From NCBI RefSeq assembly GCF_001652585.1, contig NZ_LWLG01000012.1, forward strand, positions 30,001-62,000: DNA of 32,000 bases, in the 5' to 3' direction. Positions within the stretch are counted from its first letter, which is position 1. Every line of letters begins with the position of its first letter. Positions 741-13,924 of the stretch are shown here, piece after piece. The notes under the pieces were generated by a model. That model saw only the letters and a program-made list of their open reading frames with translations. It ran no database searches and was not told the origin of the DNA. This DNA comes from Thermosulfurimonas dismutans (GTDB lineage: Bacteria > Desulfobacterota > Thermodesulfobacteria > Thermodesulfobacteriales > Thermodesulfobacteriaceae). A program made the position numbers and the translations under genes.

Positions 741-2267
741 ATGAGTGGCGCCAAGTTTTACTTTGTCGCCCGTATGCCGGACCAGCCCGGGGCCTTACAT
801 CGAGCCGCAGAGATCGTGCGCAAGTACCAAGGCAACATCAACCGCATTCACTACGACCGGCGCATTGACCCGCACACCGTCTTTTTCGAGGTGACGCTTT
901 CCTCAGAGGAGGACTACCGCAAGATCCGCGAAGAGCTCCAGCGTATAGGCTACCTACAGGAATCGTTGGAACCCTTGGGATTTCTTAAATTTAACGTCTA
1001 CCTCCCCAACCGTCCGGGAGCGCTCTTCGAATTTCTGAACTACGTCACCGACGCCCAGGCCAACATCGCCTTTTTGGACTTCGACGATCAGGGCCGCCAC
1101 CCAGACCGTTTGACCGTAAGCCTTACCGTAGAACGCAGCGCCATCATCGATAAGCTCTTAAACCGCCTCAAATCCCGTTATCGCCTGGAGATCCTCGAGT
1201 ACGACACCCGCGGCGACCATTTGGACAACACCGTCTTCTACCTAAAGTTCGCCCAGAGATTGCGTGAGCTCATCGGCGAAGCCGAAGATGAGTTTCTTCT
1301 GCGGTTGCTCCACGACATCAACCACATCGTCCAGGAGCTCACCAACCTCAAGCAAGACCCTCAAGAAGTCTTTCGGTGTATCCTGGCCACCGGGCAAAAA
1401 CTCAAGGAGACCACCGGCGTGGGCTTCTACGCCGACGTCCAGCACTTCGAGGTGACCGATGGGGTGCGTCTCTTCTGTTTTCAACTCCCTTTCGGAGGAA
1501 ACATCTTTGTGCTGGACACCAGGGAAGAAATGATCATGATCGACACCGGCTACGGTCTCTACCACGAAGACGTAGTGCGGCTTCTCCAGCACTACGGCCT
1601 AGGGGACCTCTCCCGACTCTCCCGGATCTTTCTCACCCATGCCGACGCCGACCACGCCGGGGCCGCGGGATTCTTCAAGGCCCCCTCCCACCTTCATCCC
1701 GGCACCAAAGAGATCATCGAGAAGGCCAACCGGGCCTACGGTTCCCGGGTAGAAGGTTCCATCCTGGAAGAGGTCTACACCAAGCTCATCAATCTCTTTT
1801 CCCACTTCACCCCGCCCCAAAAAATGGTCCTGTTCCCACAGGAGGTCTTTGGGCTTCGGAACATCTTTCCGGTGATCCAGAGTTTCCGGGTGGGGCCCTT
1901 GGAGTTTGAGGTGCTCGAAAGCCTCGGTGGGCACCTCTACGGCCAGGTCTTTTTCTTCTGTCCCGAGGTTGGTCTCCTATTTACCGGAGATAGCCTCCTG
2001 AATCTTGAAAGCTTTACCCCGGAACGCCTGGAGTTCAGCCGTTTGGCCAAGATCCTTATGACCTCGGTGAATGTGGATAGCGAGATCGCCACTAAGGAGA
2101 GGGAGGCCCTGCTTGAGATCGCCAAGGAGACCGACCTGAGGTTGCGCTCAAAGGGGCGGCGCTGTCTTATTTGCGGCGGCCATGGCGCAATCTCAGTGCT
2201 AGAGGAAGGAAAGCTTAAGGCCTTTGGTAAAATAGAAAGCTACCATCCGGTTGGGCCGCGGCCTTAA
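741..2267 (+). CDS. Tandem ACT-domain protein fused to a metallo-beta-lactamase-fold hydrolase
   Basis: The ORF is 508 aa, with ATG preceded by AGGGAGG at 727-733. Two ACT-like segments are visible (FYFVARMPDQPGALHRAAEIV..., FNVYLPNRPGALFEFLNYVTDAQANIAFLDF). The C-terminal MBL signature is IFLTHADADHAGAAG, an H-x-D-x-D-H variant, followed by further Gly/His/Asp-rich MBL-like segments. Confidence 0.8.
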   Translation: MSGAKFYFVARMPDQPGALHRAAEIVRKYQGNINRIHYDRRIDPHTVFFEVTLSSEEDYRKIREELQRIGYLQESLEPLGFLKFNVYLPNRPGALFEFLNYVTDAQANIAFLDFDDQGRHPDRLTVSLTVERSAIIDKLLNRLKSRYRLEILEYDTRGDHLDNTVFYLKFAQRLRELIGEAEDEFLLRLLHDINHIVQELTNLKQDPQEVFRCILATGQKLKETTGVGFYADVQHFEVTDGVRLFCFQLPFGGNIFVLDTREEMIMIDTGYGLYHEDVVRLLQHYGLGDLSRLSRIFLTHADADHAGAAGFFKAPSHLHPGTKEIIEKANRAYGSRVEGSILEEVYTKLINLFSHFTPPQKMVLFPQEVFGLRNIFPVIQSFRVGPLEFEVLESLGGHLYGQVFFFCPEVGLLFTGDSLLNLESFTPERLEFSRLAKILMTSVNVDSEIATKEREALLEIAKETDLRLRSKGRRCLICGGHGAISVLEEGKLKAFGKIESYHPVGPRP

Positions 2268-2294: not shown

Positions 2295-2906
2295 TCAGGG
2301 GACGAATCGGGAAGCTATCCGATTCTGGGGGTCTAGAATCAGGATATCCCCAAAAATGGAGATCGCTACTTTCTTTTGACCAGAATGATACAGGGTTAAG
2401 GCCAACTGAGTAAGAAAAGCCACATCCGTAGGATAAAGGGTTAGCATCTTCCGGCAGACGGCTTCGGCCTGGCGATACTTTTTTTGTTCTCGCAGGGCTT
2501 GAGCGAGGCGAAGATTGCCATAGTAGTTATAAAAATCTATTTTCAAAACTCGAGTCATCAATTCTTCCACTTCTTTCCACCTTTTTTGAACCATATAGGT
2601 AAGGCCCAAGCCCAGAAGTGGTTCCACGGCCTGCGGGGCTACCTCTGCGGCCTTTTCGTAGTGTTTTCGGGCCTCCCGATAGCGCCCCTCTAGATAAAAT
2701 AACCAACCCAATCTTAAATTGACGGTATAGCCCCGAGGGAATTTCTCGTAAACTGGAAGAAGGGCCTCTCTAGCTTTGACATACTCTCCCCGCCTCTCAA
2801 ACTCATAGGAAAGATGGTAGGCCCGCTTGATAGCCTTATAATCCAAGGCCCAGGCCCAGCTAACTCCAAGGACCAGGATGAGAAGACTCAAAAGAATCTT
2901 TCGCAT
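2295..2906 (-). CDS. Secreted tetratricopeptide-repeat (TPR) protein, last gene of the sigma54 operon
   Basis: The ORF is 203 aa with signal peptide MRKILLSLLILVLGVSWAWA. Helical TPR-like units repeat (EYVKAREALLPVYEKFP, GRYREARKHYEKAAEVAP, KKYRQAEAVCRKMLTLYP). The start overlaps the upstream stop (TGATG at 2904-2908). Confidence 0.75.
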   Translation of the reverse strand: MRKILLSLLILVLGVSWAWALDYKAIKRAYHLSYEFERRGEYVKAREALLPVYEKFPRGYTVNLRLGWLFYLEGRYREARKHYEKAAEVAPQAVEPLLGLGLTYMVQKRWKEVEELMTRVLKIDFYNYYGNLRLAQALREQKKYRQAEAVCRKMLTLYPTDVAFLTQLALTLYHSGQKKVAISIFGDILILDPQNRIASRFVP

Positions 2907-3772
2907 CAGAAGTTAAAACCGATGAAACCAGTAATTATGGCCTGGTTGACACTTTTGTCAGATTCCACTTCTTTATAGGTATTCCAAGTTCCGGTAAGAC
3001 CTAGAACGTAATTATTGAATCGGTAAGTGACTTCCATGGAGGCCCCGCCGCGGTACTTTTCCGTAAGGTTGTAAACCACAAAACCGGAATTTTTGACCGC
3101 AAAGATCTGCTGTCCTACCCAACCGGACAGCTTTACGCTCAAAGGCCCTCGAGTACAGGTTCCAGAAAGCTCAAAGGAGTAATAGTTTTCCATGGAAAGC
3201 CCGATTTTTTCGTCCTCGTCAATATGGATGTAGTAGCCCCGGGCCTCGAGATAAAGACTCCTTTTTCCGAAATAGAAGAACTTTCCGGCGTGAGGAGAGA
3301 TCTGAAAGACGTCCAGATCCACCATTTCGTCATAGTTCGAATAGAAGAATTCCAGCCCGGCATTCCACTTCCAGGGCACGAAATAAGTGAGGTCCGTAAA
3401 AAGAATCAGCCCTTCATCGGTGAGGTCATCGTCGGTGGAGATATAGTGGCCTCCCAGACGCAAAGATAGATTGGGATAAAGGCTCCCGGTGTTGGTGTAG
3501 GCCAGGGTGTAATCCGTTTGATCAAGGTCCGAATAACCGGACTCATAGTTGATGTGGAGTTGGGAGACCGCGGCCTCAAGGCCATGATGTCTTCCGTCCC
3601 CAAGGCTTCCGTAGGCCGTAAAAGAATATCCATCATCCTTGACCTTGGAGTTGCCATAATTCAAATAGGCCCCGTAGAGGGCAAAATACTTCTTGAGTTC
3701 CGAAGTTCGACCGGTGCCCCAAGTCAGACCCAGAATCAAAACTACAATAAGCATCAACCATACTTTTCTCAT
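2906..3772 (-). CDS. Outer-membrane beta-barrel protein
   Basis: The ORF is 288 aa with an N-terminal signal peptide (MRKVWLMLIVVLILGLTWG). Alternating hydrophobic/aromatic beta-strand patterns run throughout, and the C-terminus is the aromatic ...GFIGFNF typical of OMPs. The start forms an ATGA overlap with the upstream stop (3769-3772). Confidence 0.7.
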   Translation of the reverse strand: MRKVWLMLIVVLILGLTWGTGRTSELKKYFALYGAYLNYGNSKVKDDGYSFTAYGSLGDGRHHGLEAAVSQLHINYESGYSDLDQTDYTLAYTNTGSLYPNLSLRLGGHYISTDDDLTDEGLILFTDLTYFVPWKWNAGLEFFYSNYDEMVDLDVFQISPHAGKFFYFGKRSLYLEARGYYIHIDEDEKIGLSMENYYSFELSGTCTRGPLSVKLSGWVGQQIFAVKNSGFVVYNLTEKYRGGASMEVTYRFNNYVLGLTGTWNTYKEVESDKSVNQAIITGFIGFNF

Positions 3773-5844
3773 CTCTTCCTCCTTAATTGATAAATTCGAT
3801 TTTTGATTTTTATTTCGATCTCTTCAAAGCCTACATCTTCGGCAAGGACCGTCTTAGTTTCTATCTTTTCATTATTCAAGTTGATTTTACCCGAAAAATC
3901 AAGTAGGCTTTGTGATTCATATCTGGCTTTTATTTGGAAATATCGTGGATAAAAAGAAATAAGAAAAAGATACCATTCTTTTTTAAAGCCCGAGAGTCCT
4001 ATTTCAAGTGGAAGACTATCCTCCCAACGAAGGCCTGGTTTCAAGGCCAGAGGCACTTTCGGGGCCGCAAGGAAGAGCCATTTCAAGGGTGAAGACTTAC
4101 GGCCCTCAAAACTCAGGAAGTAGAAGGCCTTTTCCTTTAAGGCAAAATAAAGCCTACTCTGGCCATCAGTAAGGTAAAAAGTCCCGTCCGGGGCCATTTC
4201 CACAGAAAGCGCAATTTCTCCGAAAAGACTGCCGTTTTCATATAGGCTGTAAGCCAACTTCTGGCCAAGGAGGAGATTGAGCCGCTTTTTGAGGGCCTTA
4301 TCCGGGGCCAAGGGCTCAACCGTTGAACCTTCCACGGGCAAGGAAAAATCCTTAAAAAGCCCCTCTTCCAGATACCCGGAGAAGACAAAAGGCAGGGTGG
4401 GCGAGCCGATCTCGGGCCCATGCTGGATATGGAAGTGAAGATGGGGTTCCGGTGCATAGCCCGAACTTCCGCAGAGCCCGAGCACCGTTCCTTTCACTAC
4501 CCAATCTCCCTTTTTGACCCGCAGGGTTCCGGGGCTGAAGTGTGCAAGCACAGCATAAAAACCGCGGAGATCGTAAATCACCACATGGTTCCCCCAGGGA
4601 TTTTCCCGATTAGCTGAGCCTGGAGGCTCATCTGGAAGCCCATCTACGGCCTCCACCACCCGGCCCGAGACCGGGGAAAAGACCGGCTTACGATAGGCGT
4701 AATAGTCCTCGGGGCGCATCCCCTCTCCGGCAAAGGTGCGGCCGTTTTCGTCCGCTACGACGAAGTCCAGGGCGTGACGCCAAGGCCCCTTGTGGGTGAA
4801 CTGGCCGTCTGGTCCCTGAGAGATGAGCCAACGTCCACTTACCGGAAGGTCCACCTCTGGAACCAGAGAAGGAAACCGGATCTCAAAGCTTAGATGATGA
4901 TCCAGGGTTTTCTCGGGCGTGCCCTTATAAAGGGCGGTAAGCTTCCTGAAGCCTGAAACTATGAGGGCATAGAGAAAAAGCAGGGTTACCAGGTTAAATG
5001 GAAGGGCAAAGGCCGGGAGACCGAACTTCTCCCAGAAGACCCGAGAGGCTTCGGTTATGGGCACCGCCACCACCGCCCCCAGGATCGCCAGGAGATAACT
5101 CCGGGGAGAGGGTATCAGGAAAACCCCTCCCAGGGCCATGCTGATGAGGACGTAGTTGAAGTGTATGGGATTGGAGAAAACCTGATACGAAGAACCGGTG
5201 AAGAGGTAAGCCATAAGGGTTCCTGAAAAATAGCCCAGTGCGGCCAAAAGCGCGAGAATCCTTGAGAACCGGAGAATGAGGGCGAAAACTATGAAACCGG
5301 GAAGGGGGTGAGGCATGAAAAAGATGGCCCCTAGAGAACGGAAAAAGCCCTCAAGCCACAGGGGGAGACCTCCCACACTGTAATGGAAGGTGGGTTTAAG
5401 ACTTGTGACCAAGAGATTGGAATAATGGTAGGAGGCAAGAGTAGCCACAAGACTTCCGATCACAAACGGAAGGCTCAGGACCGGGAGCCTCAAGTAATAA
5501 GATAGAAAGGAAGAAAGACCATAGGTAAGGAGAAAGGTAAAAATCCCTAGCAGGATTATAAAGAGAAGGGTTAAAGGATCAAGCCGAAAGTAATAGCCCA
5601 CGGAAAGGCCCACCAGAAGGGGATTATAGATGTAGTAGTCAAGTCTCAGGAAATCTTCTTTAAGTCCGATAAGCCTCGCAAAGCCGTAGGCCGAAAGTAC
5701 ACAAATAAGGCCCGAGAGTCCCAGATTGGGATCCATGAGGGTGGAAAGGGCCAAAAGGACCAGTCCGGCTCCAGGCTCGCTTATAAAAAGGATGCCGGAG
5801 TAACTGTTCAGGAGTGAATGGATGGCCGTCTTAAGAGCCTTCAT
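3769..5844 (-). CDS. Urea-transporter-like (UT family) membrane domain fused to an M23 metallopeptidase domain and an unassigned ~190-aa C-terminal domain
   Basis: I moved the start from 5973 to the ATG at 5842-5844, which forms an ATGA overlap with the decarboxylase stop. From there the product begins MKALKTAIHSLLNSYSGILFISEPGAGL, a UT-like N-terminus. About 10 hydrophobic segments follow, then the M23 zinc motifs WRHALDF (HxxxD) and EPHLHFHIQ (HxH). The tail has no motif I recognise. Confidence 0.75.
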   Translation of the reverse strand: MKALKTAIHSLLNSYSGILFISEPGAGLVLLALSTLMDPNLGLSGLICVLSAYGFARLIGLKEDFLRLDYYIYNPLLVGLSVGYYFRLDPLTLLFIILLGIFTFLLTYGLSSFLSYYLRLPVLSLPFVIGSLVATLASYHYSNLLVTSLKPTFHYSVGGLPLWLEGFFRSLGAIFFMPHPLPGFIVFALILRFSRILALLAALGYFSGTLMAYLFTGSSYQVFSNPIHFNYVLISMALGGVFLIPSPRSYLLAILGAVVAVPITEASRVFWEKFGLPAFALPFNLVTLLFLYALIVSGFRKLTALYKGTPEKTLDHHLSFEIRFPSLVPEVDLPVSGRWLISQGPDGQFTHKGPWRHALDFVVADENGRTFAGEGMRPEDYYAYRKPVFSPVSGRVVEAVDGLPDEPPGSANRENPWGNHVVIYDLRGFYAVLAHFSPGTLRVKKGDWVVKGTVLGLCGSSGYAPEPHLHFHIQHGPEIGSPTLPFVFSGYLEEGLFKDFSLPVEGSTVEPLAPDKALKKRLNLLLGQKLAYSLYENGSLFGEIALSVEMAPDGTFYLTDGQSRLYFALKEKAFYFLSFEGRKSSPLKWLFLAAPKVPLALKPGLRWEDSLPLEIGLSGFKKEWYLFLISFYPRYFQIKARYESQSLLDFSGKINLNNEKIETKTVLAEDVGFEEIEIKIKNRIYQLRRKR

Positions 5845-7181
5845 CGCAGATGTTCGGGAACTCTTTCCTTTCTTACGATGTCCTCCAGATTTTCGGCCTC
5901 GCGGATGACCTCTGCCCGGCCGTCCTCCGTGATGAGGATCACCCGTGGGCGGTAGGTAATAAATTGCATCCACTGAGTCACATTGTAAGCCCCCACCGGG
6001 GAGAGGATGAGATGGGTGTTTCTAGGAAGTGGGGGCAGGAGAGCACTCTCCTCCACCACATCGATGTTCATGCAGAGGGGACCGTAAAGGACGCAGGGTT
6101 CGGGTGGACCAGGAATCTCTCTCTCCATCTCCACCTTGAGGTGGTACCAGAAGGCCGTAAAAAGGAGATTAACCCCGGCATCAAGAATATAGGCCCGCCG
6201 GCCGTCAGGAAGCCTTTTGGTCGCCCTTACGGTAGTAAGGAGGAACCCGGCCTCATCCACCAGGGCCCGGCCGGTTTCCATAATGAGAAGCGGATAGTTT
6301 CCCGGAGGGAGTCCGGAAAGCATGGCCCGGCCGATGGCCTCAATGTACTCCGCTAGCGAAGGAACCGCCACCTCCGGCGGAAGATAGATACCTTTTAGGC
6401 GATTGCGGGATGGAAAGCCCCCTCCGAGGTCCAGATACTCTATCTGCCAGCCAAAACGGTTCTCTAACTCTCCGGCAAGCCTCACCAGTTTTTCGGCCGC
6501 CTGGCCATAGGCCCCTGGTTCAAGAATAAAGGTACCCTGGTGACAGTGAAGCCCAACCACCTCGAGGAGGCCTCCGGCAGCTATCCGCCGGGCCACTTGC
6601 ATGACCTCTCCGTTTTCAAGATTGAACCCGAATCGGTCCCAGCGGGGATAGATGCCGGTATCCATGTTAACCCGAAGGCCGATTTTAAGGCGCCGGCCCA
6701 TCTTGCGGGCCAGGTTTTCAAGATCAAGGACCTCGTCCAAGGAGTCGGCGTTAATTCGGGCCCCTTCAGAGACCGCGCGCTCTAGAATCTCTAGCGGTTT
6801 ATAAGGGCCGTTAAAGACTATTTTTTCCCCGGGAATTCCGAGTCTTCGGGCCTTCTCGTACTCAAAATCCGAGACTACCTCCGCCGTAGCCCCTTCCTGG
6901 TGAAAGATCCGGCAGATGGCGTCCAGATAGTTGGTCTTGTAGGACCAACTGAACTCCACCCGGGGATAGTGGCTCTCAAAGAGACGTTTGAGATACCGGA
7001 ACCTCTCTCGGAGCCTCTTTTCCGAGAAGACGAAAAGTGGAGAGCCGAATTTCTCAACCAAGGTCTTCACCGGAATTCCATCTATCTCCGAACGGATAAG
7101 GGTTCGCGCGGCGCTTTTCTTTTCCCGCATAAAACCTACATGCAGTTTAAGAATACTCGGTTTTTGATAGAGTTTTTTCAT
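5841..7181 (-). CDS. PLP-dependent decarboxylase, Orn/DAP/Arg decarboxylase family (fold type III); substrate unknown
   Basis: The ORF is 446 aa. Family-type motifs are present: FSWSYKTNY (PLP-lysine region, compare AxKAN), HCHQGT, YLDLGGGFP (GGG phosphate loop) and YGPLCMNIDV (active-site Cys region). ATGA overlaps occur at both ends (7178-7181 and 5841-5844). Confidence 0.8.
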   Translation of the reverse strand: MKKLYQKPSILKLHVGFMREKKSAARTLIRSEIDGIPVKTLVEKFGSPLFVFSEKRLRERFRYLKRLFESHYPRVEFSWSYKTNYLDAICRIFHQEGATAEVVSDFEYEKARRLGIPGEKIVFNGPYKPLEILERAVSEGARINADSLDEVLDLENLARKMGRRLKIGLRVNMDTGIYPRWDRFGFNLENGEVMQVARRIAAGGLLEVVGLHCHQGTFILEPGAYGQAAEKLVRLAGELENRFGWQIEYLDLGGGFPSRNRLKGIYLPPEVAVPSLAEYIEAIGRAMLSGLPPGNYPLLIMETGRALVDEAGFLLTTVRATKRLPDGRRAYILDAGVNLLFTAFWYHLKVEMEREIPGPPEPCVLYGPLCMNIDVVEESALLPPLPRNTHLILSPVGAYNVTQWMQFITYRPRVILITEDGRAEVIREAENLEDIVRKERVPEHLR

Positions 7182-8206
7182 CTCTCCCCCCTAGTAACCA
7201 TGTGCTGAAAGATTTGAATATCGGTTACAAAGTCGTCGGTAAAACGGATATAGAGTTTCCCGGCCTCGTAATGGGATTCCCTTTCCGGTTCCTCTCCGAG
7301 GGCGGCTTTAAGGAGTCTTTCCGGAAGATTAACCCCTACGCCCACCGCAAAATAGATCCAGGCCGGAAAGCGGGGATTGATCTCGATGAGATAGATCTCT
7401 TCGTCCTTCACAATAGTCTCCAGCTCAAAGGCTCCACGCCATCGAAAGGCCCTTACGAACTCCTCGGCGGCGGAAAGTAGCCTTTGGTGGGTTACGGTCA
7501 CCCCGGTCCAGATCTTTCCCAGGGAGGTAATCCAGAGTTTTTTGATGGTCACCAGCCCGAAATGTCCTCCCTCTCCGTCGCCGACCCCCACCACGTTCAT
7601 CTCCTCGCCCGCAACCACTTCCTGAAGAATCACCGGAAATCCCCATTCCGCCAAAATACTGTGGAAGTACTGCTCCGCTTCCGCGGGGGTGTGGGCCTTA
7701 AGGGCCTTATAAAAAAGGCCCTTAACCATGACCGGAAATTTCAGCTGTGAGAGGGCCCGGGAGAATTCTTCGTATGAAGTAACTACCAGGGTGGCAGGGA
7801 TCTTGATTCCGATGGTCTCGGCTACTGCCGGTAGCCGATCCTTGGCCCGCAGACGGAACTGTTCTTTGGAGGGAAGAAAGGTTTTTATTCCGTAGGCCGA
7901 AAGCCTTTCCTGGAGATCTATAAAAAGAGGCAGTTCGGCATCCAGGGCCGGGATGATGGCCTCAAGATCCTCTTTTTCCCGGATATAAAGGAGTCGATTG
8001 AGAAAAGGGGCTTCGCCCTCGGAAGGATAGGGCATAAGATAGGCCCGCTCAATCAGTTGTTCGAGATAGACTCCGGGTTCCATGGCATCATAGGCTAGGC
8101 CGACCACGGAGACCGAAAGACTTCCCTCCCGAAGACCTTTTATAATTCCGATTCCCGGGCCAGGATTGTCAACCGCGTTTATCCCGGAGACCGCAACCTT
8201 AATCAT
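7178..8206 (-). CDS. ATP-grasp family carboxylate-amine/peptide ligase
   Basis: The ORF is 342 aa. The layout resembles ATP-grasp enzymes: FPVMVKG (ATP-binding Lys region), VILQEVVAGEE and the Mg/ATP loop YLIEINPRFPAW. The start overlaps the PqqD-like stop by 8 nt (ATGATTAA). Confidence 0.75.
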   Translation of the reverse strand: MIKVAVSGINAVDNPGPGIGIIKGLREGSLSVSVVGLAYDAMEPGVYLEQLIERAYLMPYPSEGEAPFLNRLLYIREKEDLEAIIPALDAELPLFIDLQERLSAYGIKTFLPSKEQFRLRAKDRLPAVAETIGIKIPATLVVTSYEEFSRALSQLKFPVMVKGLFYKALKAHTPAEAEQYFHSILAEWGFPVILQEVVAGEEMNVVGVGDGEGGHFGLVTIKKLWITSLGKIWTGVTVTHQRLLSAAEEFVRAFRWRGAFELETIVKDEEIYLIEINPRFPAWIYFAVGVGVNLPERLLKAALGEEPERESHYEAGKLYIRFTDDFVTDIQIFQHMVTRGER

Positions 8207-8447
8207 GGCTTTCCCTCCAGAGCCCGAATCTCCTTAAGCCCTCCAGAAACTCCTCCACGTCCCGTTCCGCCTCTTCAGGGGAAACCTCGTATTCCTCAAG
8301 GATGGCCTCAACGATTGCCGTGGGTGACAATCCTTCCTTGAGCTTCTGCAAGATAAAAAGCCCAGTTTCGTTTACGGTATAACTGTTTCCGGTCTCGGGA
8401 TCAAACACAAAGCCTTCATCACTTATGGCCAGGCGAGAGATCTTCAT
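8199..8447 (-). CDS. PqqD-like small protein (RiPP-recognition-element / peptide-chaperone fold)
   Basis: The ORF is 82 aa. The N-terminus forms a short beta-sheet pattern (ISDEGFVFDPETGNSYTVNETGLFILQKL), followed by acidic helices (SPTAIVEAILEEYEVSPEEAERDVEEFLEGL), as is typical of the PqqD family. A strong RBS AAGGAGG sits 6 nt upstream of the ATG. Confidence 0.65.
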   Translation of the reverse strand: MKISRLAISDEGFVFDPETGNSYTVNETGLFILQKLKEGLSPTAIVEAILEEYEVSPEEAERDVEEFLEGLRRFGLWRESHD

Positions 8448-8458
8448 TTCGGGCCTCC

Positions 8459-9265
8459 TTATCTATTTTCCCTGAGCCATTTCATAATATCCCAGGCAGT
8501 AACACCATGGGAAAGGGCTAATTCCCTTAGAGGGCTATTCCAATCTGGGCGCACTCCGTGTTTCTTAAGAATCCCCTCACAGGTCTTACGGTCAAGCCCG
8601 AAGAGCTCACAGACCTCCTTTAGGGTTCGCTTACCAGGATGGGCGATGACCGGTGCTACAGAACCCTTAGCGGTGGAAGCGCTCTGTTTCTGACTGATGA
8701 TTATCAAATAAAGATCCGCTGGGGAGGTCTTGTTTAGACGGGCAAGCTCCTTGAGAGACATTTGGGAAGAGGGAATTTTAAACCCTCGAGCTTCTAAGAC
8801 CTGTATAGTTTTTTGCAGGGAAAGACCCTCTCTTTTGACAACGACTTCGAGAGAAAGAAGTTCAGCGTGAGGCACTGGGGGAGGAACTGCCGGCTTGTGC
8901 CAAGAGGCTTTAAATCTTTCCTGGAGGCTCATTAGCAGGCTTGCCGGCGGAAGATCCTTTATCGCTAGGACCGTAAGAGCCACCGTAACCAGAGTCAGGG
9001 AAACCAAAACCTTGCTCGGGGCCCTTGTCGAGCCCAGATAGCGTTTAAAGGGCTTCCAGTTCAGATAGAAATGCCAGGCCGCAAGAAAGATCACGAGAAC
9101 CCCGAAGAGGATATGGATAGCCTCCCACTGATCCTTTCCCAGTCCCAGAAGGCGCCAGTCCGTCCAGTAGGCCACGCGGCCAGGCGGCATGATATAAAGC
9201 ACGAGTCCTGTTAGGACCGTGAGCCCCAGAGCATAGAAGAGAAAGAGGCTAACAAAGCTTCTCAT
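8459..9265 (-). CDS. DUF4405-like membrane protein (His-bearing helices) with a duplicated soluble C-terminal module
   Basis: The ORF track starts at 9298. I prefer the ATG at 9263-9265 (MRSFVSLFLFY...), which has GGGGGA 6 nt upstream and removes the overlap with the upstream gene. The signature is WEAIHILFGVLVIFLAAWHFYLNWKPF. The C-terminal half contains two similar ~45-aa units (LSLQKTIQVLEARGFKIPSSQMSLKELARLNKTSPADL and RTLKEVCELFGLDRKTCEGILKKHGVRPDWNSPLRELALSHGVTAWDI). Confidence 0.6.
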   Translation of the reverse strand: MRSFVSLFLFYALGLTVLTGLVLYIMPPGRVAYWTDWRLLGLGKDQWEAIHILFGVLVIFLAAWHFYLNWKPFKRYLGSTRAPSKVLVSLTLVTVALTVLAIKDLPPASLLMSLQERFKASWHKPAVPPPVPHAELLSLEVVVKREGLSLQKTIQVLEARGFKIPSSQMSLKELARLNKTSPADLYLIIISQKQSASTAKGSVAPVIAHPGKRTLKEVCELFGLDRKTCEGILKKHGVRPDWNSPLRELALSHGVTAWDIMKWLRENR

Positions 9266-9276
9266 CCCAGATCCCC

Positions 9277-9981
9277 CTATTTGTTTTCCTGAGGGCATTT
9301 TCTAAGGCTCAAAGTCCGGCCGTCTTTGAGGAGTACGATCCGGCAGGCCATGTATTCGTCTATGTTGCGAGCAGCCCAGAATGGAGGCTGGTAGGCCAAG
9401 ATCTCCACCTTCTCGCCAGGTTTAAGCTCCGGATAATCGTTTAACCAAAGGGGAGAAATCCTGAAGGTAGCCACCCGGCCCTCACTATTTTTTACTTCTA
9501 TTACCAACCATTTAATCTGAGGCCGACCTATACCGGGGCTGCTCTTCCGGGCCACGATTTCCCCGGAATAGACCAGCGGTTTCAGACTAGTTCTCCAACA
9601 GGGCTTGCCTGGCCCCTCTCGCAGCACGAGGACCGCCCCGGTATCGAGATTTTTTACCTCCGCCGCCACCAAAACCGGCTGACCGGCAAAGGCCGTACGT
9701 GGGGGAATCCAGCCTCTAACCCTGATCCGGTCTCCCGTAGTAAAGGGAGGCTTGAGCTTCCACCATTCGGGATAAAGCCTCACCTTTATTTCCTTTTTCT
9801 CGGTGGCTACCAACGCGGTCACGAAGCCGAACCTGGCCTTGGGAGAGGCCTTTTCCACCCGGATCTCCCTGACCGTGCCCTCCACCTCCTGCATAGGAAC
9901 CCCGGGACCCTTTCCAAAGGCGGCTCCGAACCATATTAGAAGAAAAAGCAAACTAAATATTTCAATTTTTCTCGTGTTCAT
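9277..9981 (-). CDS. Secreted protein with two OB-fold-like (BOF-like) repeats, first gene after the sigma54 promoter
   Basis: I moved the start from the TTG at 10011 to the ATG at 9979-9981, which has AAGGAGG 7 nt upstream. The product begins MNTRKIEIFSLLFLLIWFGAAFG, a signal peptide. Two internally similar halves are visible (GTVREIRVEK...VRLYPEWW...GDRIRVRGWIPP and GEIVARK...FRISPLWL...GEKVEILAYQPPFW). Confidence 0.55.
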   Translation of the reverse strand: MNTRKIEIFSLLFLLIWFGAAFGKGPGVPMQEVEGTVREIRVEKASPKARFGFVTALVATEKKEIKVRLYPEWWKLKPPFTTGDRIRVRGWIPPRTAFAGQPVLVAAEVKNLDTGAVLVLREGPGKPCWRTSLKPLVYSGEIVARKSSPGIGRPQIKWLVIEVKNSEGRVATFRISPLWLNDYPELKPGEKVEILAYQPPFWAARNIDEYMACRIVLLKDGRTLSLRKCPQENK

Positions 9982-10017
9982 ACCTACGACCTCCTTTTTC
10001 CTTTTTAGCAAAAATTA

Positions 10018-10034
10018 AGCAAAGGGTATGCCAA
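10018..10034 (-). promoter_or_regulatory. Sigma54 (RpoN) -24/-12 promoter
   Basis: The minus strand reads TTGGCATACCCTTTGCT, that is TGGCAT-N5-TTGCT with exact GG-N10-GC spacing. The consensus is TGGCAC-N5-TTGCW. The GC element lies 37 nt upstream of the ATG at 9981. The promoter is immediately downstream of a sigma54-dependent activator gene pair. Confidence 0.7.
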
Positions 10035-10072
10035 CCCTAAACCTTTAAAAACAGCGGCTCCGAGGTCTCTGA

Positions 10073-10123
10073 CCTCGGAAACTTTTCCGAAAAAGGGATC
10101 ATTTTTCGGAAAAGTTTCCGAGG
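10073..10123. repeat. Perfect 22-bp inverted repeat with a 7-nt spacer spanning the kinase stop codon
   Basis: Arm 10073-10094 is CCTCGGAAACTTTTCCGAAAAA and arm 10102-10123 is TTTTTCGGAAAAGTTTCCGAGG. I checked all 22 positions base by base and they are complementary. The spacer GGGATCA contains the TGA of the kinase. A second hairpin (CCGAGGTC-TCT-GACCTCGG, 10060-10078) shares CCTCGG with the left arm. Confidence 0.85.
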
Positions 10124-11244
10124 GGAAGTCTAATGGTAAAAACGGTCCAACCGGAACATAATTCGGCCTTGACGCTTCCACCGTGGGCCTCTACGATTCT
10201 CTTGACATTGAAGAGGCCGAGACCGAAGCCTCCGGGTTTTTGGCTCTTGTAGGGCCTGAAAAGTTCGGTGGTCTCGGGAAGAAGGCCTGCAGAATCGGCC
10301 ACCTCTATACGATAAAATTCGCCCTCAACGTCCCCGTAAAGCCTCATTCTGCGGGGAGGAGGTGCCTGAGCCAGGGCCTCCAGGGCATTTCTAATAAGGT
10401 TTCGAAGGACCACGCGCATCTTTTCAGGATCAACGGAAAGTTTTGCGGGCGCAAGTCTGACCTCGGTTTCGACTCCAAGATCTTCTACTCTTTCGGAAAA
10501 TTCTCCGAGGATCTCTTTTATCAAATCGTTTATTCTGGTTTCAACAGGCCTTAGAGCCAGAGGCTTCCTTAAATCGGAGACCTCTACCAGATAAAGGGTG
10601 AGTCGCCTAATTTCCTCCTCAAGGATTTTTATTTCTTCGGACGAAGTCTTCTTTTTCAGGCGAAAGACCGCAAAATTGAGGTTATTCAGGGCGTTTTTGA
10701 CCTCGTGAAGCATGGATGCGATGGCCAGGGATACGCTTTTTAGCCGTTCGGCTTCGGCCCTTTCCTGAGCAAGGATCAGTCTGCTTTCGTAATAACTCCT
10801 GAGCAACCAAAGGGTTAACCCTAACCCCATGAAATTGAGGAGTAACCACAAGCTGAGTTCAATGTAGAAATGGCGTTTGATCTCGTAAAAGACCTCCCCC
10901 GAGAAGTAGAGTTTAAATACGAAGGGGTTGAGTTCCAGGGTGTAAATCAGATTTTTGGGAGGAATGTCCGTCCCCGGAACGATGATGGTTCTTCCGGAAA
11001 GGATAAGGGCTGCCCCTTTGAGAAGGTCGGAATCCTCCATATATTCTGCAAGGGTTTCCACAGGATCGCCTCCAGAGATCACAGTGGCCTTGAGAACCGA
11101 ATAAATACGCCGTTTTTCTTCCTCCAGCGTCAAATAAAAAAATTTCTCCCATTCCTTCTTCAAACGGTAAAAATCGTAAAGAAAACCCAGACCCAAGGCC
11201 AAAAGTACGGTAAAAAAGAGAAAGAGATAACGTCTAGATGCCAT
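10099..11244 (-). CDS. Sensor histidine kinase (two TM segments, ~100-aa extracytoplasmic loop, HisKA + HATPase_c)
   Basis: The ORF is 381 aa. TM1 is YLFLFFTVLLALGLGFLY and TM2 is LSLWLLLNFMGLGLTLWLL. The H-box is SMLHEVKNALNNL, the N-box is VLRNLIRNALEA and the G2 box is GGFGLGL. The start overlaps the regulator stop by 11 nt. Confidence 0.85.
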   Translation of the reverse strand: MASRRYLFLFFTVLLALGLGFLYDFYRLKKEWEKFFYLTLEEEKRRIYSVLKATVISGGDPVETLAEYMEDSDLLKGAALILSGRTIIVPGTDIPPKNLIYTLELNPFVFKLYFSGEVFYEIKRHFYIELSLWLLLNFMGLGLTLWLLRSYYESRLILAQERAEAERLKSVSLAIASMLHEVKNALNNLNFAVFRLKKKTSSEEIKILEEEIRRLTLYLVEVSDLRKPLALRPVETRINDLIKEILGEFSERVEDLGVETEVRLAPAKLSVDPEKMRVVLRNLIRNALEALAQAPPPRRMRLYGDVEGEFYRIEVADSAGLLPETTELFRPYKSQKPGGFGLGLFNVKRIVEAHGGSVKAELCSGWTVFTIRLPLGNFSEK

Positions 11245-12580
11245 ATTTTTTGCGTTTATAACGTAGGGACTTCTCGTCTATCCCCAGAAGTTCGGCAGCC
11301 CTGGTCTGCACATAGCCAGTCTGCTCTAGGGCTTCCTTGAGAAGGAGCTTCTCCACGTCGGCAAGGACTTTGGGGAGGGCTTTTCCTAGCGGAAGATGCA
11401 GATCGATCTTCGACTCGCCCTTAGTCTCAAGTCCAAGAACTTCGGGAGTAATTTCCCTGCCGCTTACCAACACCGCCCGGTGGATAAGATTCTCGAGCTC
11501 CCTGACATTTCCCGGAAAAGAATAACGGAGTAGCTCTTCCATAGCTTCCGGGGTGATCTTTACATCTTTTTGGTATTTCTGGTTAAACTTCCGCAGGAAA
11601 TAAGCAACAAGTTCAGCAATATCTTCCTTTCGTTCGCGAAGGGGTGGAATCTTTAGGACTAGGACATTCAGGCGAAAATAGAGATCCTCTCGAAATTTTT
11701 GTCGAGAGACCGCGGCCTTAAGATCTTCATTGGTAGCCGCTATGATTCTGGCGTCGCTTTTCAGAATCTTATTGCTGCCTAGACGACGAAATTCGCCTTC
11801 CTGGAGGAACCGTAGGAGTTTGCTCTGAAGAACAAGGGGCATCTCTCCGATTTCGTCAAGGAAAAGCGTACCGCCTTGGGCTTCTTCGATCAGACCCGAC
11901 CGAGAAGTTTCAGCCCCGGTAAAGGCCCCACGCTCATAACCAAAAAGTTCGGCTTCGAAGAGTTGCTCAGGCAAGGCCGCACAATTCACGGCCACAAACC
12001 GACCCTTACGCCCGCTTTTTTCGTGGATATAACGGGCTAAAAGCTCCTTTCCCACTCCGGACTCTCCTAGAATAAGAATGGGGGCCTCGGGCCGGGCAAA
12101 GATCTCGGCCTGCCGCAGAAGATCCTTCATTACCTGTGAACGATAAACCAAAGGCCCCGGCTCTCGGGGTCTTCTTAGACTAACGAGTTCCCCACACCTT
12201 CTCACCAAATTAAGGAGGACCTCGGGCTCATAAGGTTTTACCAGATAGTGAAAGGCCCCGGCCTTGATCGCAGAAATTGCGTCTTCTATCTCACCGAAGG
12301 CTGTAATGATAAGGACTTCGGTTTCTGGACTCTTCTCTTTTATACGCTCAAGGAGTTCCAAGCCGCTCATCCCCGGAAGCCGGACATCCAAAATGGCCAC
12401 ATCTATTTCTTCTTGGCTCAACACGGGCAGGGCCTTTTCGGCACTGGGCACACTCCAAACGCGATATCCTTCTTCCTCTAAGGTCTTCCGCAGAAGTTCG
12501 CGATGGATCTTCTCGTCTTCTACTATCAGGATACGCAGGCTATCGCCTTCGGGACCGGAGTCGACCTCTTTTCTTTTCAT
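11234..12580 (-). CDS. Sigma54-dependent response regulator (NtrC family: receiver + AAA+ + Fis-type HTH)
   Basis: The ORF is 448 aa. The receiver domain shows ILIVEDE...DVAILDVRLPGMSG. The AAA+ domain has Walker A GESGVGKE, the sigma54-contact loop ERGAFTGA, Walker B LFLDEIG and RVIAATN-like IIAATNEDL. The C-terminal HTH is TRAAELLGIDEKSLRYKRKKYGI. Confidence 0.92.
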   Translation of the reverse strand: MKRKEVDSGPEGDSLRILIVEDEKIHRELLRKTLEEEGYRVWSVPSAEKALPVLSQEEIDVAILDVRLPGMSGLELLERIKEKSPETEVLIITAFGEIEDAISAIKAGAFHYLVKPYEPEVLLNLVRRCGELVSLRRPREPGPLVYRSQVMKDLLRQAEIFARPEAPILILGESGVGKELLARYIHEKSGRKGRFVAVNCAALPEQLFEAELFGYERGAFTGAETSRSGLIEEAQGGTLFLDEIGEMPLVLQSKLLRFLQEGEFRRLGSNKILKSDARIIAATNEDLKAAVSRQKFREDLYFRLNVLVLKIPPLRERKEDIAELVAYFLRKFNQKYQKDVKITPEAMEELLRYSFPGNVRELENLIHRAVLVSGREITPEVLGLETKGESKIDLHLPLGKALPKVLADVEKLLLKEALEQTGYVQTRAAELLGIDEKSLRYKRKKYGI

Positions 12581-12598: not shown

Positions 12599-13465
12599 TT
12601 AAGACGTCCGAAGGCCCCTTTCCAAATAAGCTAGGAACTTGTAAATCAGACGGGCAGCCAGGTATTCCGTACGGGGATCTCCGGGAATAGGCAAAAGCTC
12701 TACCACATCAAAACCAATGACCCGGAAGGAGGCTGCCAACTTCAAAATTTCGAGGACCTCATACCAGGTAAGCCCTCCAGGCTCGGGAGTGCCCACTCCG
12801 GGGGCCTCCGCGGGATCAAAACCATCAAGATCTAAAGTCACGTAAACCGGCCCCTCCCCCAAAAGGTCTTTCAAGTTTGCAAGACCGGCTTCAAAGTCCC
12901 GTTTGAGGTCCCGGGCCCACAGGACAGAAAGTTTTTCCCTCTGAATGAGTTCGTATTCCTCCCGGGAGGCCGTCCGTATTCCCACGGCCACCACCTCAAG
13001 GCCCATCTCATAAGCCCGCCGCATAACGCAAGCATGGCTGAAGGGAGTTTCCTGGTAAACATCCCTCAAATCTGGATGGGCATCTATCTGAAGGATTTTG
13101 AATGACGAAAAGCGCTCCTTTAAAGCCCTCAGAGCCGCAAGGGTAACGGTGTGTTCACCCCCGAGGAGAACCGGAAACTTTTGTTCGTCCAGGGCCTTAC
13201 AGACCAGGCTCTCTATAGTAAGAATGGCTTTCTCGGGGTCTACCGGAAGTTCGGGCTCCGGAAAGGTATAGAAACCCAAGTTACGGTGAGGTTCGCTTCC
13301 GGTTTCCTCGTCAAAAAACTCGAGATAAGGACTAACCTCTAGGATACGTCTCGGGCCCTCTCTCGTCCCTGGGCGCCAAGAAGTAGTGGCGTCGTAGGGA
13401 GCAGGAATGAGGGCTACCCGAGCCTTCTCTCGGACCTCGGGTAGCCCCAGAAAGGTCCGTCTCAT
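12599..13465 (-). CDS. speB: Agmatinase / ureohydrolase (arginase family)
   Basis: The ORF is 288 aa. The arginase-family Mn-binding motifs are present: LGGEHTVT, QIDAHPDLR and VTLDLDGFDP. The start directly abuts the speH stop (TAGATG). Confidence 0.88.
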   Translation of the reverse strand: MRRTFLGLPEVREKARVALIPAPYDATTSWRPGTREGPRRILEVSPYLEFFDEETGSEPHRNLGFYTFPEPELPVDPEKAILTIESLVCKALDEQKFPVLLGGEHTVTLAALRALKERFSSFKILQIDAHPDLRDVYQETPFSHACVMRRAYEMGLEVVAVGIRTASREEYELIQREKLSVLWARDLKRDFEAGLANLKDLLGEGPVYVTLDLDGFDPAEAPGVGTPEPGGLTWYEVLEILKLAASFRVIGFDVVELLPIPGDPRTEYLAARLIYKFLAYLERGLRTS

Positions 13466-13924
13466 CTAGACCGCAAGCTGGTTCCTTTCGGTCCGGATGA
13501 AACGCTCCACCGCCCGAATGGAACGCGGAAACTCGTGGCCCCGATCAAGAAGCCGGATTTCGCTCTTCTGGACTTCAAAGAGTCGAGAAATATCCTCGAT
13601 GGCTTTGTCCACATCGAAGGGCTTGCAGGAAAAGATATCCACGCTCATATAAAGCTTTTCCGGAAAGGTATGGATACTAATGTGACTTTCAGCAATAATC
13701 ACGAAGCCTGAAATACCCCAATCCTCGGGCACCGGAGCATAATATTTGAAGACATAAGGAGGCATAATCTTAGTCATATTGATTTGGGACGGGTATTCAC
13801 TCAGAAAATTGTAAATAAAATCCAAGTCCATAAGCTTTTCCCGATTGCAACCATAGCCGTCAAGAATGAGATGCTGCCCGAAACCGTACTCCACCTTTTC
13901 CGAATCCATAAATTTCTTTTCCAT
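13466..13924 (-). CDS. speH: S-adenosylmethionine decarboxylase proenzyme (pyruvoyl-dependent, short bacterial/archaeal class)
   Basis: The ORF is 152 aa. The self-cleavage and active-site region is VIIAESHISIHTFPE, with the E-S processing site. GGAGGG lies upstream of the ATG at 13922-13924. Confidence 0.88.
   Translation of the reverse strand: MEKKFMDSEKVEYGFGQHLILDGYGCNREKLMDLDFIYNFLSEYPSQINMTKIMPPYVFKYYAPVPEDWGISGFVIIAESHISIHTFPEKLYMSVDIFSCKPFDVDKAIEDISRLFEVQKSEIRLLDRGHEFPRSIRAVERFIRTERNQLAV

Follow-up and report, generated by a model that had tools for sequence, protein, structure and literature searches.

A single gene of Thermosulfurimonas dismutans encodes a 691-aa inner-membrane protein in which a urea transporter (UT)-family channel domain is joined to an M23 zinc peptidase domain, with every catalytic residue invariant, and to a family-specific tail of roughly 200 aa. 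The peptidase and tail are inferred to lie in the cytoplasm, an unusual location for an M23 enzyme. The protein is the membrane component of a conserved six-gene cassette, and full-length homologues with 42-67% identity were detected in 391 species genomes across more than 15 phyla. The original prediction that one ORF fuses a UT-like channel to an intact M23 domain was confirmed, while its interpretation was only partly supported, as one zinc ligand was misassigned, the nature of the solute became doubtful and the link to the complete cassette had not been made. A literature search detected one 2026 survey in which UT plus M23 is listed as a newly seen domain combination, and no function had been assigned to this arrangement in any source found.

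The UT-M23 gene and its cassette

The gene was examined within a window of 32,000 nucleotides (contig NZ_LWLG01000012.1, positions 30,001 to 62,000; assembly GCF_001652585.1), in which the following features were identified.

3769-5844, minus strand: whole gene for the UT channel, M23 peptidase and weakly LolA-like tail (691 aa plus stop)
4945-5844, minus strand: UT-family 10-TM channel domain (aa 1-300)
4831-4944, minus strand: linker, inferred to be cytoplasmic, with a conserved GTPE..LD helix (aa 301-338)
4375-4830, minus strand: M23 (LAS-type) zinc metallopeptidase domain (aa 339-490)
3772-4374, minus strand: family-specific C-terminal predicted beta half-barrel, weakly LolA/LprG/FABP-like (aa 491-691)
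8199-8447, minus strand: PqqD-like (RRE) small protein, first gene of the core cassette
7178-8206, minus strand: ATP-grasp ligase (CPS-like/amino-acid-ligase-like clade)
5841-7181, minus strand: PLP-dependent alanine-racemase-fold decarboxylase, FslC/LysA/BtrK clade
2906-3772, minus strand: predicted outer-membrane beta-barrel protein (288 aa), ATGA-coupled to the UT-M23 stop
2295-2906, minus strand: periplasmic TPR protein with a signal peptide (203 aa)

The ORF starts with an ATG at 5844, which overlaps the stop codon of the upstream decarboxylase gene as ATGA. A longer version with a GTG start runs to 5973, and the 43 additional codons had been considered an artefact in the original prediction. 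As 120 listed homologues were mostly 684 to 723 aa and aligned from residue 1, the shorter start was supported. The presence of full-length homologues in 391 species genomes also indicated that the fusion is not the product of a frameshift, which had been named beforehand as a condition that would refute it.

The order PqqD-like protein, ATP-grasp ligase, decarboxylase, UT-M23, barrel and TPR protein, with the same spacing, was found in nearly all of about 80 loci from more than 15 phyla, and the cassette was restricted to diderm lineages. Synteny was observed in 57 loci for the PqqD-like gene, 58 for the barrel and 60 for the TPR protein. Median intergenic gaps were -4 to 18 nt and ATGA overlaps were present in the window, indicating translational coupling. 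Fusions of UT-M23 with the TPR protein, behind a TM segment, were present in three homologues (P0134, P0166 and P0223), and a fusion with the barrel was present in another (P0243).

The first cassette protein matched Pfam PqqD (E 4e-19) and scored 42.5 against a cutoff of 35 for TIGR04353, while lasso-type PqqD profiles matched below their cutoffs. Although an RRE protein normally implies a peptide substrate, as in RiPP clusters, no conserved small ORF was found upstream of PqqD in 57 loci, the gaps within the cassette left no precursor or carrier ORF, and no further conserved neighbor family was detected. The ligase matched Pfam ATPgrasp_Ter and ATP-grasp_3 and the PRK12767 family, and a profile search of the PDB detected 2PN1, CarB and PurD. 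This was the most conserved gene of the cassette, with a mean column identity of 69%, which fits a universal metabolite but says nothing about which one. The decarboxylase had Pfam matches and hits to FslC (1.3e-59) and LysA (7e-62), both below their cutoffs, and its best PDB hit was 7KH2, an N-citrylornithine decarboxylase (3e-54). This clade acts on side-chain-conjugated amino acids (PMC7857480).

The barrel protein had no Pfam or PDB sequence match and was inferred, without a fold model, only from its signal peptide, its C-terminal aromatic residue (...GFNF) and its fusion context. The TPR protein matched TPR Pfam families, with weak hits to PgaA, BcsC and Slam-TPR profiles.

Domain composition and conserved residues

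Profile searches detected Pfam UT (PF03253) at residues 9 to 293 (E 4e-66; 223.6 bits against a cutoff of 25; profile positions 2 to 290 of 292) and Pfam Peptidase_M23 at residues 385 to 475 (E 3.9e-12; 46.6 bits against a cutoff of 28.7). A phmmer search of the PDB detected dvUT (3K3F/3ME1; E 7e-22), human UT-A and UT-B, and then the M23 domains of DipM, Csd1/2, lysostaphin and ShyA. An AlphaFold2 model of the whole protein had a pLDDT of 89.8 and a pTM of 0.82. Foldseek comparisons matched the UT domain to dvUT at a TM of 0.83 to 3ME1 (0.79 to 0.84 for 3ME1, 3K3F and 3M6E) and to UT-A and UT-B at 0.70 to 0.78, indicating the same 10-TM inverted-repeat fold. The M23 domain matched the LytM domains of DipM, EnpA and EnvC at a TM of about 0.7 (0.64 to 0.73 when lysostaphin and LytM catalytic domains were included).

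The UT domain shares the paired signature motifs of urea transporters such as dvUT (3K3F) and UT-B (4EZC) (LPxx[T/S]xPF and xPxFxLPFN), here the near-invariant LPVLSLPF and LPAFALPFN. The hydrophobic slot residues of dvUT (F80, L84, F190 and L247) correspond to Y73, L77, F176 and L233, and the GTPE motif that ends dvUT is present in the linker, where P310, E311, L314 and D315 are invariant. In 46 homologues, the pore-lining positions Y73, N74, L77, S124, P126, F127, F176, F229, N230, L233, F279, P282, F283 and N284 were invariant or nearly so. In contrast, the urea-binding residues listed for the selectivity filter (dvUT Q24 and E187; Sm T130 and T294; PMC4357013) were not conserved, with Q24 replaced by G/A/E at position 17, E187 by A173 (36/46), T294 by A280 (35/46) and T130 by S124. 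The domain also scored only 115.7 bits against the 274.6-bit cutoff of the NCBIfam urea transporter (Yut) equivalog TIGR03441. These results indicated that urea may not be the solute. The protein further differs from known urea transporters in carrying a 390-aa extension, inferred to be cytoplasmic, and in being encoded within a biosynthetic and envelope operon instead of with urease or urea-metabolism genes.

For the M23 domain, H351, D360, H435, H468 and H470 were invariant in 46/46 homologues, such that the full set of zinc ligands (His, Asp and His) and two catalytic His residues is present and the GxSGxSxxPHxH motif is kept. The original prediction had identified HALD and HLHFH as the zinc-ligand motifs. 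The latter was correct (H468 and H470), but the His of HALD (H357) is Tyr in 35/46 homologues and the position four residues before D360 is variable. The only invariant upstream His is H351 and hence the N-terminal ligand pair is, by inference from conservation rather than from coordinates, most likely H351...D360 (H-x8-D) instead of a canonical HxxxD, with an insert of roughly 16 residues after the Asp. In comparison to lysostaphin, LytM, ShyA, DipM, Csd1/2 and LasA, the domain also differs in its fusion to a channel, in its inferred cytoplasmic location and in being followed by a unique predicted beta half-barrel rather than SH3b, LysM or coiled-coil targeting domains.

The tail (residues ∼488 to 691) had no Pfam or NCBIfam match, in agreement with the original prediction that it contained no recognizable motif, but was modeled as a well-folded domain (pLDDT 92.9) with an aromatic-rich conserved core and an invariant D609. 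A search of 1.84 billion representatives detected this region only in this fusion family (219 hits). The top Foldseek hits were LolA from five species followed by LprG, LppX and FABP/CRABP, but these similarities were weak (E 4e-3 to 1e-1; TM 0.3 to 0.4).

Inferred orientation of the soluble domains

The original prediction had left open whether the M23 domain faces the periplasm, and hence peptidoglycan, or the cytoplasm. As UT halves are inverted repeats and the T5a-Pb loop is external in dvUT and UT-B (PMC4357013), the end of T5b is expected to be internal. Mean K+R counts over 46 homologues were 2.8 at the N terminus, 4.8 after the last TM (residues 297 to 325) and 0.7 in the central loop, consistent with the positive-inside rule. 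No signal peptide and no hydrophobic segment after residue 300 were detected. Furthermore, natural variants of about 1,075 aa, confirmed on contigs, contain a hydrophobic TM segment preceded by Arg-rich sequence between the tail and the TPR domain, and the stand-alone TPR and barrel proteins carry signal peptides. Overall, these lines of evidence, which are inferential rather than experimental, place the M23 domain and tail in the cytoplasm and hence indicate that the sacculus is not the substrate.

This orientation argued against a reading based on database annotation, in which the protein, named as a urea transporter or as a peptidoglycan DD-metalloendopeptidase family protein, would be an ordinary urea transporter fused to a periplasmic endopeptidase. 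Although both Pfam domains exceed their gathering thresholds, the loss of Q24 and E187 equivalents, the low equivalog score, the absence of urease or urea-metabolism linkage across loci and the finding that all peptidoglycan-endopeptidase NCBIfam hits fell far below their cutoffs made this explanation very unlikely.

Possible roles of the cassette

The analysis showed that this is one inner-membrane protein with a UT-family channel domain, an M23 peptidase domain with an intact catalytic set and a family-specific predicted half-barrel, and that it belongs to a compact, translationally coupled cassette conserved across many diderm phyla. That both soluble domains lie in the cytoplasm, packed under the channel, is a strong inference, whereas peptidase activity, metal binding, solute flux and everything that follows on mechanism are inferred with less certainty.

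Our preferred reading, held with low confidence (about 0.35), is peptidase-coupled export of a small amide or amine conjugate. In this view, the ATP-grasp enzyme would amide-link an amino acid through its side chain to an acceptor held by the PqqD-like protein, and the decarboxylase would remove the alpha-carboxyl of the conjugated residue, as FslC, SbnH, MccE and BtrK do on their conjugates. The M23 domain, presumed to be positioned at the cytoplasmic mouth of the channel, would hydrolyze an amide bond and release a small, slim, uncharged amide or amine product, with the aromatic-lined tail pocket helping to hold the substrate. The product would then leave down its gradient through the modified UT pore and cross the outer membrane through the barrel and TPR pair. 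The conservation of pore-lining positions supported a functional channel rather than an anchor, the invariant catalytic residues supported an active peptidase, and TPR plus barrel pairs are typical of export machineries. However, this reading rests on an as yet unidentified product, substrate and acceptor, no precursor ORF accompanies the PqqD-like protein, the UT pore is passive and so narrow that only very small or very slim molecules could pass, a small molecule would not obviously need a dedicated outer-membrane barrel, and import is equally possible.

The pairing of an ATP-dependent ligase with a clade-2 alanine-racemase-fold decarboxylase resembles the BtrI/BtrJ/BtrK (butirosin side chain), FslA/FslC, SbnH and MccE pathways, and BtrJ is also an ATP-grasp enzyme. 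The cassette differs in having no ACP or NIS synthetase, in its PqqD-like partner, in its coupling to UT-M23 and outer-membrane proteins and in its housekeeping-like distribution across phyla. By analogy, the proposed design resembles peptidase-containing ABC exporters, in which a cytoplasmic C39 peptidase domain is fused to a bacteriocin exporter, the membrane translocator of the product it matures, and is encoded next to biosynthetic genes and outer-membrane partners. The folds, however, are unrelated, no ATPase for active transport and no precursor peptide gene are present, and the pore is far too narrow for a folded or bulky peptide.

Alternatively, the barrel, TPR protein and UT channel could bring in a small amide-type compound (urea-like, or a tiny peptide or amide) for hydrolysis by the M23 domain and processing of the products by the ligase and decarboxylase. 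UT channels are bidirectional and usually serve uptake in bacteria, substrate-specific outer-membrane uptake channels exist and the M23 domain is placed at the cytoplasmic exit. This catabolic reading was considered unlikely, as an ATP-consuming ligase and a PqqD/RRE protein are biosynthetic features, TPR plus barrel pairs are typical of export and the urea-binding Gln and Glu are lost.

Editing of peptidoglycan precursors at the inner leaflet was considered similarly unlikely. Here, the M23 domain would cleave or trim the stem peptide of lipid II or UDP-MurNAc-peptide in the cytoplasm, the tail would hold the lipid carrier, the ligase would add an amino acid to the stem, as does the D-aspartate ligase Aslfm, and the DAP-decarboxylase-like enzyme would decarboxylate it, generating an amine-bearing stem to be bound later by the TPR and barrel proteins, with the UT domain mainly a scaffold. 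M23 enzymes recognize peptidoglycan peptides, the closest named profiles are peptidoglycan endopeptidases, the tail has weak lipid-binding-fold hits, the decarboxylase is related to LysA and FslC, VanX provides a precedent for a cytoplasmic LAS-type peptidase acting on such precursors, and the cassette is limited to diderms and carries envelope genes. Against this, the pore-lining residues are strongly conserved, PqqD has no known role with these precursors, no linked Mur, Fem or flippase genes were found across the loci, and the similarity of the tail to LolA is weak.

It is less likely still that the UT domain is only a trimeric anchor for a regulatory or processing protease acting on a cytoplasmic or membrane protein, for example a component of the envelope complex, with nothing transported. 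Degenerate or repurposed channel domains are common as anchors, the polar urea-binding residues are lost and a sigma-54 two-component system lies next to the cassette in some lineages. However, a mere anchor would not need pore motifs and slot residues that are invariant across phyla, and the two-component genes were present in only about 12 of 80 loci.

A more speculative and improbable possibility is secretion of a side-chain-less polyamide or oligoamide. The ligase and decarboxylase would act iteratively, as BtrJ and BtrK do, adding gamma-Glu (or beta-Asp) and decarboxylating it to a GABA (or beta-alanine) unit on a primer held by the PqqD-like protein. The M23 domain, from a family specialized for slim glycine-type chains, would cut the chain from the primer at the channel mouth, and the widened UT slot, which normally stacks planar urea molecules in single file, would thread the extended chain across the inner membrane for passage through the TPR and barrel pair, as in exopolysaccharide systems. 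This would represent a new class of envelope polymer and a new use of a urea channel as a polymer translocon.

Comparison with the TPR plus barrel export modules PgaA, BcsC, AlgK/AlgE and Slam indicated a possible resemblance, in that a TPR protein with a signal peptide is encoded next to, and sometimes fused with, a protein that is only inferred to be an outer-membrane barrel. In this cassette the two are separate genes, the barrel is small (about 265 aa when mature) with no sequence match to known barrels, and no inner-membrane glycosyltransferase synthase, as in synthase-dependent exopolymer secretion, was found in the cassette or conserved nearby.

Architecture, start codon and motifs of the UT-M23 protein

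The start codon of the UT-M23 gene was examined first, as the original prediction had favored a shorter ORF over a version with 43 additional codons. On the minus strand, an ORF ran from 5973 (GTG) to 3769, and use of the ATG at 5844 gave a 691-aa protein beginning MKALKTAIHS. This ATG overlapped the stop codon of the upstream decarboxylase gene as GCGATGAAG. The 120 listed homologues were mostly 684 to 723 aa in length and aligned from residue 1. The longer, GTG-started version (734 aa) was therefore rejected, and the extra 43 codons were considered an ORF-calling artifact, as originally proposed.

Pfam profile searches matched UT to residues 9 to 293 (E = 4e-66) and Peptidase_M23 to residues 385 to 475 (E = 3.9e-12), with both scores being above the gathering scores. 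A sequence search of the PDB detected dvUT and the mammalian UT-A and UT-B proteins, followed by M23 catalytic domains. An AlphaFold2 model built on 46 homologues was confident throughout, with a pLDDT of 89.8, a pTM of 0.82 and no disordered stretch, and Foldseek matched this model to dvUT at a TM of 0.83 and to LytM-type domains at a TM of about 0.7. The possibility of a frameshift or of two artificially joined genes was rejected, as a single ORF was present in 391 species genomes and the model was confident and continuous. These results indicated that the fusion noted in the original prediction is real and is one folded protein.

The interpretation put forward in the original prediction was supported only in part, and one of the two zinc-ligand motifs required correction. 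In 46 homologues, the invariant M23 residues were H351, D360, H435, H468 and H470. The HLHFH motif was correctly identified. In contrast, the His of the proposed HALD motif (H357) was Tyr in 35 of 46 sequences, and the position that a canonical HxxxD would use (residue 356) was variable. The first ligand pair is thus most likely H351 and D360 (H-x8-D), followed by an insertion of about 16 residues before the next core strand, although the assignment of H351 as a ligand is an inference from conservation rather than from model coordinates. The Pfam match started only at profile position 13. Longer His-Asp spacing occurs in the M23A subfamily, including LasA and beta-lytic protease.

In order to determine whether the membrane domain resembles a urea channel at the level of individual residues, positions were aligned to dvUT, for which the residue list was taken from PMC4357013. 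The two UT signature motifs were present and nearly invariant, namely, LPVLSLPF and, in the window, LPAFALPFN (consensus IPVFALPFN across the 46 homologues). The hydrophobic slot residues were also retained, with Y73 corresponding to dvUT F80, L77 to L84, F176 to F190, L233 to L247 and F279 to L293. The polar residues that hydrogen-bond urea in dvUT, however, were replaced.

Replacement of dvUT urea-binding residues in the UT-M23 family (dvUT residue; equivalent in this protein; frequency in 46 homologues)
Q24; G/A/E17; variable
E187; A173; 36/46
T294; A280; 35/46
T130; S124; 43/46

The protein scored 115.7 bits against the NCBIfam urea transporter equivalog, for which the cutoff is 274.6. Hence, this protein is a UT-family channel by fold and profile but fails the tests that would make it a urea transporter. 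The strong conservation of pore-lining positions argued that the pore is used, rather than the UT domain serving only as a scaffold.

Residues from about 488 to 691 matched no Pfam or NCBIfam family. When modeled alone, this tail had a pLDDT of 92.9 and was predicted to be an antiparallel beta structure with three short helices. The best Foldseek hits were LolA from several species, followed by LprG, LppX and FABP/CRABP, all of which are open lipid-binding barrels, but these hits were weak (E = 4e-3 and worse; TM, 0.3 to 0.4). A search of 1.84 billion representative proteins found 219 hits, virtually all of which were proteins of about 690 to 720 aa with the match at about 490 to 690 or were fragments of such proteins. 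The tail is therefore specific to this fusion family. The conserved core of the tail was aromatic rich (F556, Y557, Y566, F567, F574, Y575, W607 and F631), with one invariant acidic residue, D609, and there was a speculative suggestion that this pattern represents a ligand pocket that could hold an amine.

Inferred membrane topology

The original prediction had left open whether the M23 domain faces the periplasm or the cytoplasm, and this question was addressed by inference from four observations. Firstly, UT halves are inverted repeats, and in dvUT and UT-B the central T5a-Pb loop is external (PMC4357013), such that the end of the second half is internal. Secondly, no hydrophobic segment was detected after residue 300. 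Thirdly, over 46 homologues, the N terminus carried 2.8 K+R and the segment after the last TM carried 4.8, while the central loop carried 0.7. Finally, several protein clusters of about 1,030 to 1,085 aa (P0134, P0163, P0166 and P0223) consisted of UT-M23-tail followed by an Arg-rich stretch, one hydrophobic TM segment and then TPR repeats; two of these were confirmed as single called genes on contigs, with the cassette genes upstream in one case. As the stand-alone TPR and barrel proteins had signal peptides, the TPR was placed in the periplasm and the tail on the other side of the membrane. Overall, these observations strongly suggested that the M23 domain is cytoplasmic and hence that the sacculus is not its substrate. 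Both this topology and the pore residues argued against the plain reading of the database annotations, in which a urea transporter is joined to a peptidoglycan endopeptidase. Editing of peptidoglycan precursors in the cytoplasm, by a VanX-like logic and with the LolA-like tail on the lipid carrier, was retained as a rival explanation.

Distribution and genetic context of the cassette

A scan of one genome per GTDB species found 391 genomes encoding a relative. The best 80 of these spanned Thermodesulfobacteriota, Aquificota, Deferribacterota, Calditrichota, Gemmatimonadota, Verrucomicrobiota, Planctomycetota, Ignavibacteria and Melioribacter, Rhodothermales, Lentisphaerota, Chlamydiales, Leptospirales, Riflebacteria, Firestonebacteria, Beggiatoa and Thiotrichaceae, among others. 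These matches were 41 to 67% identical, and most covered almost the whole length, with the window itself being closest to Thermosulfurimonas and Thermodesulfatator (66 to 67%). In nearly every locus with enough flank, the same genes were found in the same order and with the same spacing.

Position of each cassette gene (start relative to the UT-M23 start, in kb)
PqqD; -2.6
ATP-grasp; -2.4
Decarboxylase; -1.35
UT-M23; 0
Outer-membrane protein; +2.07
TPR; +2.95

Median intergenic gaps were -4 to 18 nt. In the window, most junctions were ATGA or TGATG overlaps, and the PqqD gene overlapped the ATP-grasp gene by 8 nt. All-against-all clustering of ORFs of at least 70 aa in about 85 loci detected only the six core genes as widely conserved. 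The neighboring genes in the window were as follows.

12599-13924, minus strand: an arginase-family gene (agmatinase/ureohydrolase type; Pfam Arginase, E = 5e-70) and an AdoMet_dc-family pyruvoyl decarboxylase gene, directly upstream of the sigma-54 regulator
8459-12580, minus strand: four genes preceding the cassette, for a sigma-54 NtrC-type response regulator, a histidine kinase, a signal-peptide protein with weak MamS/MamX or OB-like similarity, and a DUF4405 (cytochrome-b561-like) membrane protein
741-2267, plus strand: a gene for a 508-aa protein, convergent with the end of the cassette

The arginase-family and AdoMet_dc-family genes form a polyamine-type pair that would release urea and could have been a urea source for the channel, but this link was rejected, as these genes were not conserved next to the cassette in other loci. 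The two-component system, DUF4405 and MamS/X-like genes also preceded the cassette in Desulfurobacterium and Thermodesulfobacteriaceae relatives and were found mainly in Thermodesulfobacteriota and Aquificota relatives, but were present in only about 7 to 13 of the approximately 85 loci. In a Persephonella locus (L004, 13564-13908), a GGACT (gamma-glutamylamine cyclotransferase-like) gene directly followed the TPR gene, recalling BtrG in the BtrJ/BtrK pathway, but this gene was found in this locus only.

Variants of the cassette itself were also detected. A 1,074-aa ORF (protein P0243; L086, 7103-10327, and L087, 6654-9878), which was seen on three contigs, joined UT-M23-tail through a signal-peptide-like hydrophobic segment (VWA|KE) to what looks like the outer-membrane barrel, ending in ALNIFF. 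Either the internal signal peptide is cleaved or this ORF represents a recent stop-codon loss. Together with the TPR fusions, these Rosetta-stone fusions tie the three envelope genes together. In Verrucomicrobia (loci L051, L067 and L072), the barrel ORFs were about 465 to 530 aa, with an extra N-terminal region. In loci L088 and L089, dioxygenase and EF-hand genes were inserted between the PqqD and ATP-grasp genes, and an AMP-binding-like gene followed the fusion.

The partner proteins were then examined for clues to the pathway. The PqqD protein is a bona fide RRE-type domain, scoring above the TIGR04353 cutoff, with lasso-type PqqD profiles coming next. The N-terminal half of this protein was highly conserved, and the C terminus was variable. 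The ATP-grasp gene was the most conserved of the cassette, at 69% mean column identity across phyla, and belonged to the uncharacterized CPS-like PRK12767 group. Searches of the PDB with the single ATP-grasp sequence and with a profile detected only an uncharacterized structure (2PN1), CarB, PurD and biotin carboxylases and hence gave no substrate clue. A LysW-like carrier role for a conserved C terminus was rejected, as the PqqD C termini were variable and the RGE motif of the ATP-grasp protein was not strictly terminal. The decarboxylase was closest to FslC/FigC N-citrylornithine decarboxylase (7KH2; E = 3e-54), followed by DAP decarboxylases, D-Orn/Lys decarboxylase and BtrK, placing this enzyme in clade 2 of the alanine-racemase-fold decarboxylases. 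The characterized non-DAPDC members of that clade all act on amino acids conjugated through the side chain to something larger and are not polyamine enzymes (PMC7857480). A profile of the predicted outer-membrane protein gave no hit in the PDB, and a profile of the TPR protein gave only generic TPR hits. None of the six proteins matched a defense-system model in PADLOC.

An RRE protein normally implies a peptide substrate. Small ORFs within 900 nt upstream of the PqqD gene were clustered for 57 loci. Only close relatives clustered together, and the gaps inside the cassette were too small for an ORF. These results indicated that no precursor-peptide ORF is present in or directly upstream of the cassette in the loci examined.

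Proposed role of the cassette

The analysis established that there is one protein with an intact set of M23 site residues and a conserved UT pore and that this protein is encoded in a conserved, coupled cassette with cytoplasmic biosynthetic enzymes and periplasmic and outer-membrane proteins. The cytoplasmic location of the M23 domain and tail is a strong inference, while peptidase activity, conduction through the pore and all interpretive steps beyond architecture and topology remain hypotheses. In the reading that we favor, at about one chance in three, the ligase would conjugate an amino acid through its side chain to an unidentified acceptor, the decarboxylase would remove the alpha-carboxyl, and the M23 domain, presumed to lie at the channel mouth, would release a small, slim, uncharged amide or amine product, which would exit through the modified UT pore and then through the barrel and TPR pair. 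This design recalls peptidase-containing ABC exporters but with a passive channel. Features that weakened this reading were that an RRE protein without a precursor gene is odd and that a small solute should not need its own outer-membrane barrel. Import coupled to catabolism and a scaffold-only UT domain were considered as rival explanations. A more novel possibility, which was considered very unlikely but was not excluded, was that the UT slot threads a side-chain-less polyamide, which the ligase and decarboxylase would build iteratively and which would be cut by the M23 domain, whose family is specialized for glycine-type chains.

The domain combination is visible in databases, where the source names are urea transporter or peptidoglycan DD-metalloendopeptidase family protein, and a 2026 survey lists the UT+M23 architecture among newly noticed UT architectures without function or context. 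Full-text literature searches found no study of the function or topology of this protein or of the cassette. While M23 peptidases are treated as cell-wall enzymes and UT proteins as urea channels, both are repurposed here in one protein, with the peptidase inferred to lie on the cytoplasmic side, and the combination of these established families has a role that is probably new. The protein is locked into a six-gene trans-envelope cassette conserved from Aquificota and Thermodesulfobacteriota to Gemmatimonadota, Verrucomicrobiota, Planctomycetota, Ignavibacteria, Chlamydiales and Leptospirales, and the current annotations are probably misleading for hundreds of genomes. Identification of the product would define a new envelope-associated pathway, would show what a UT pore lacking its urea-binding residues conducts and would give the first function for a cytoplasmic M23 domain. 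The cassette is widespread, compact and small enough to be expressed heterologously, such that the question is directly testable.

Elsewhere in the window, the 508-aa protein encoded at 741-2267 (plus strand) had two N-terminal ACT/threonine-dehydratase-regulatory-type domains fused to a metallo-beta-lactamase-fold hydrolase, which is an unusual combination without a known function. On the plus strand at 27176-29788, DUF4198, CbiM and CbiQ genes formed a cobalt/nickel ECF-type uptake cluster. The rest of the window consisted of ordinary chromosomal housekeeping genes, namely, those for KdtA, glucokinase, Skp/OmpH, an OmpA-like protein, YicC, CorA, UppP, EPSP synthase and the DNA polymerase III delta' subunit.
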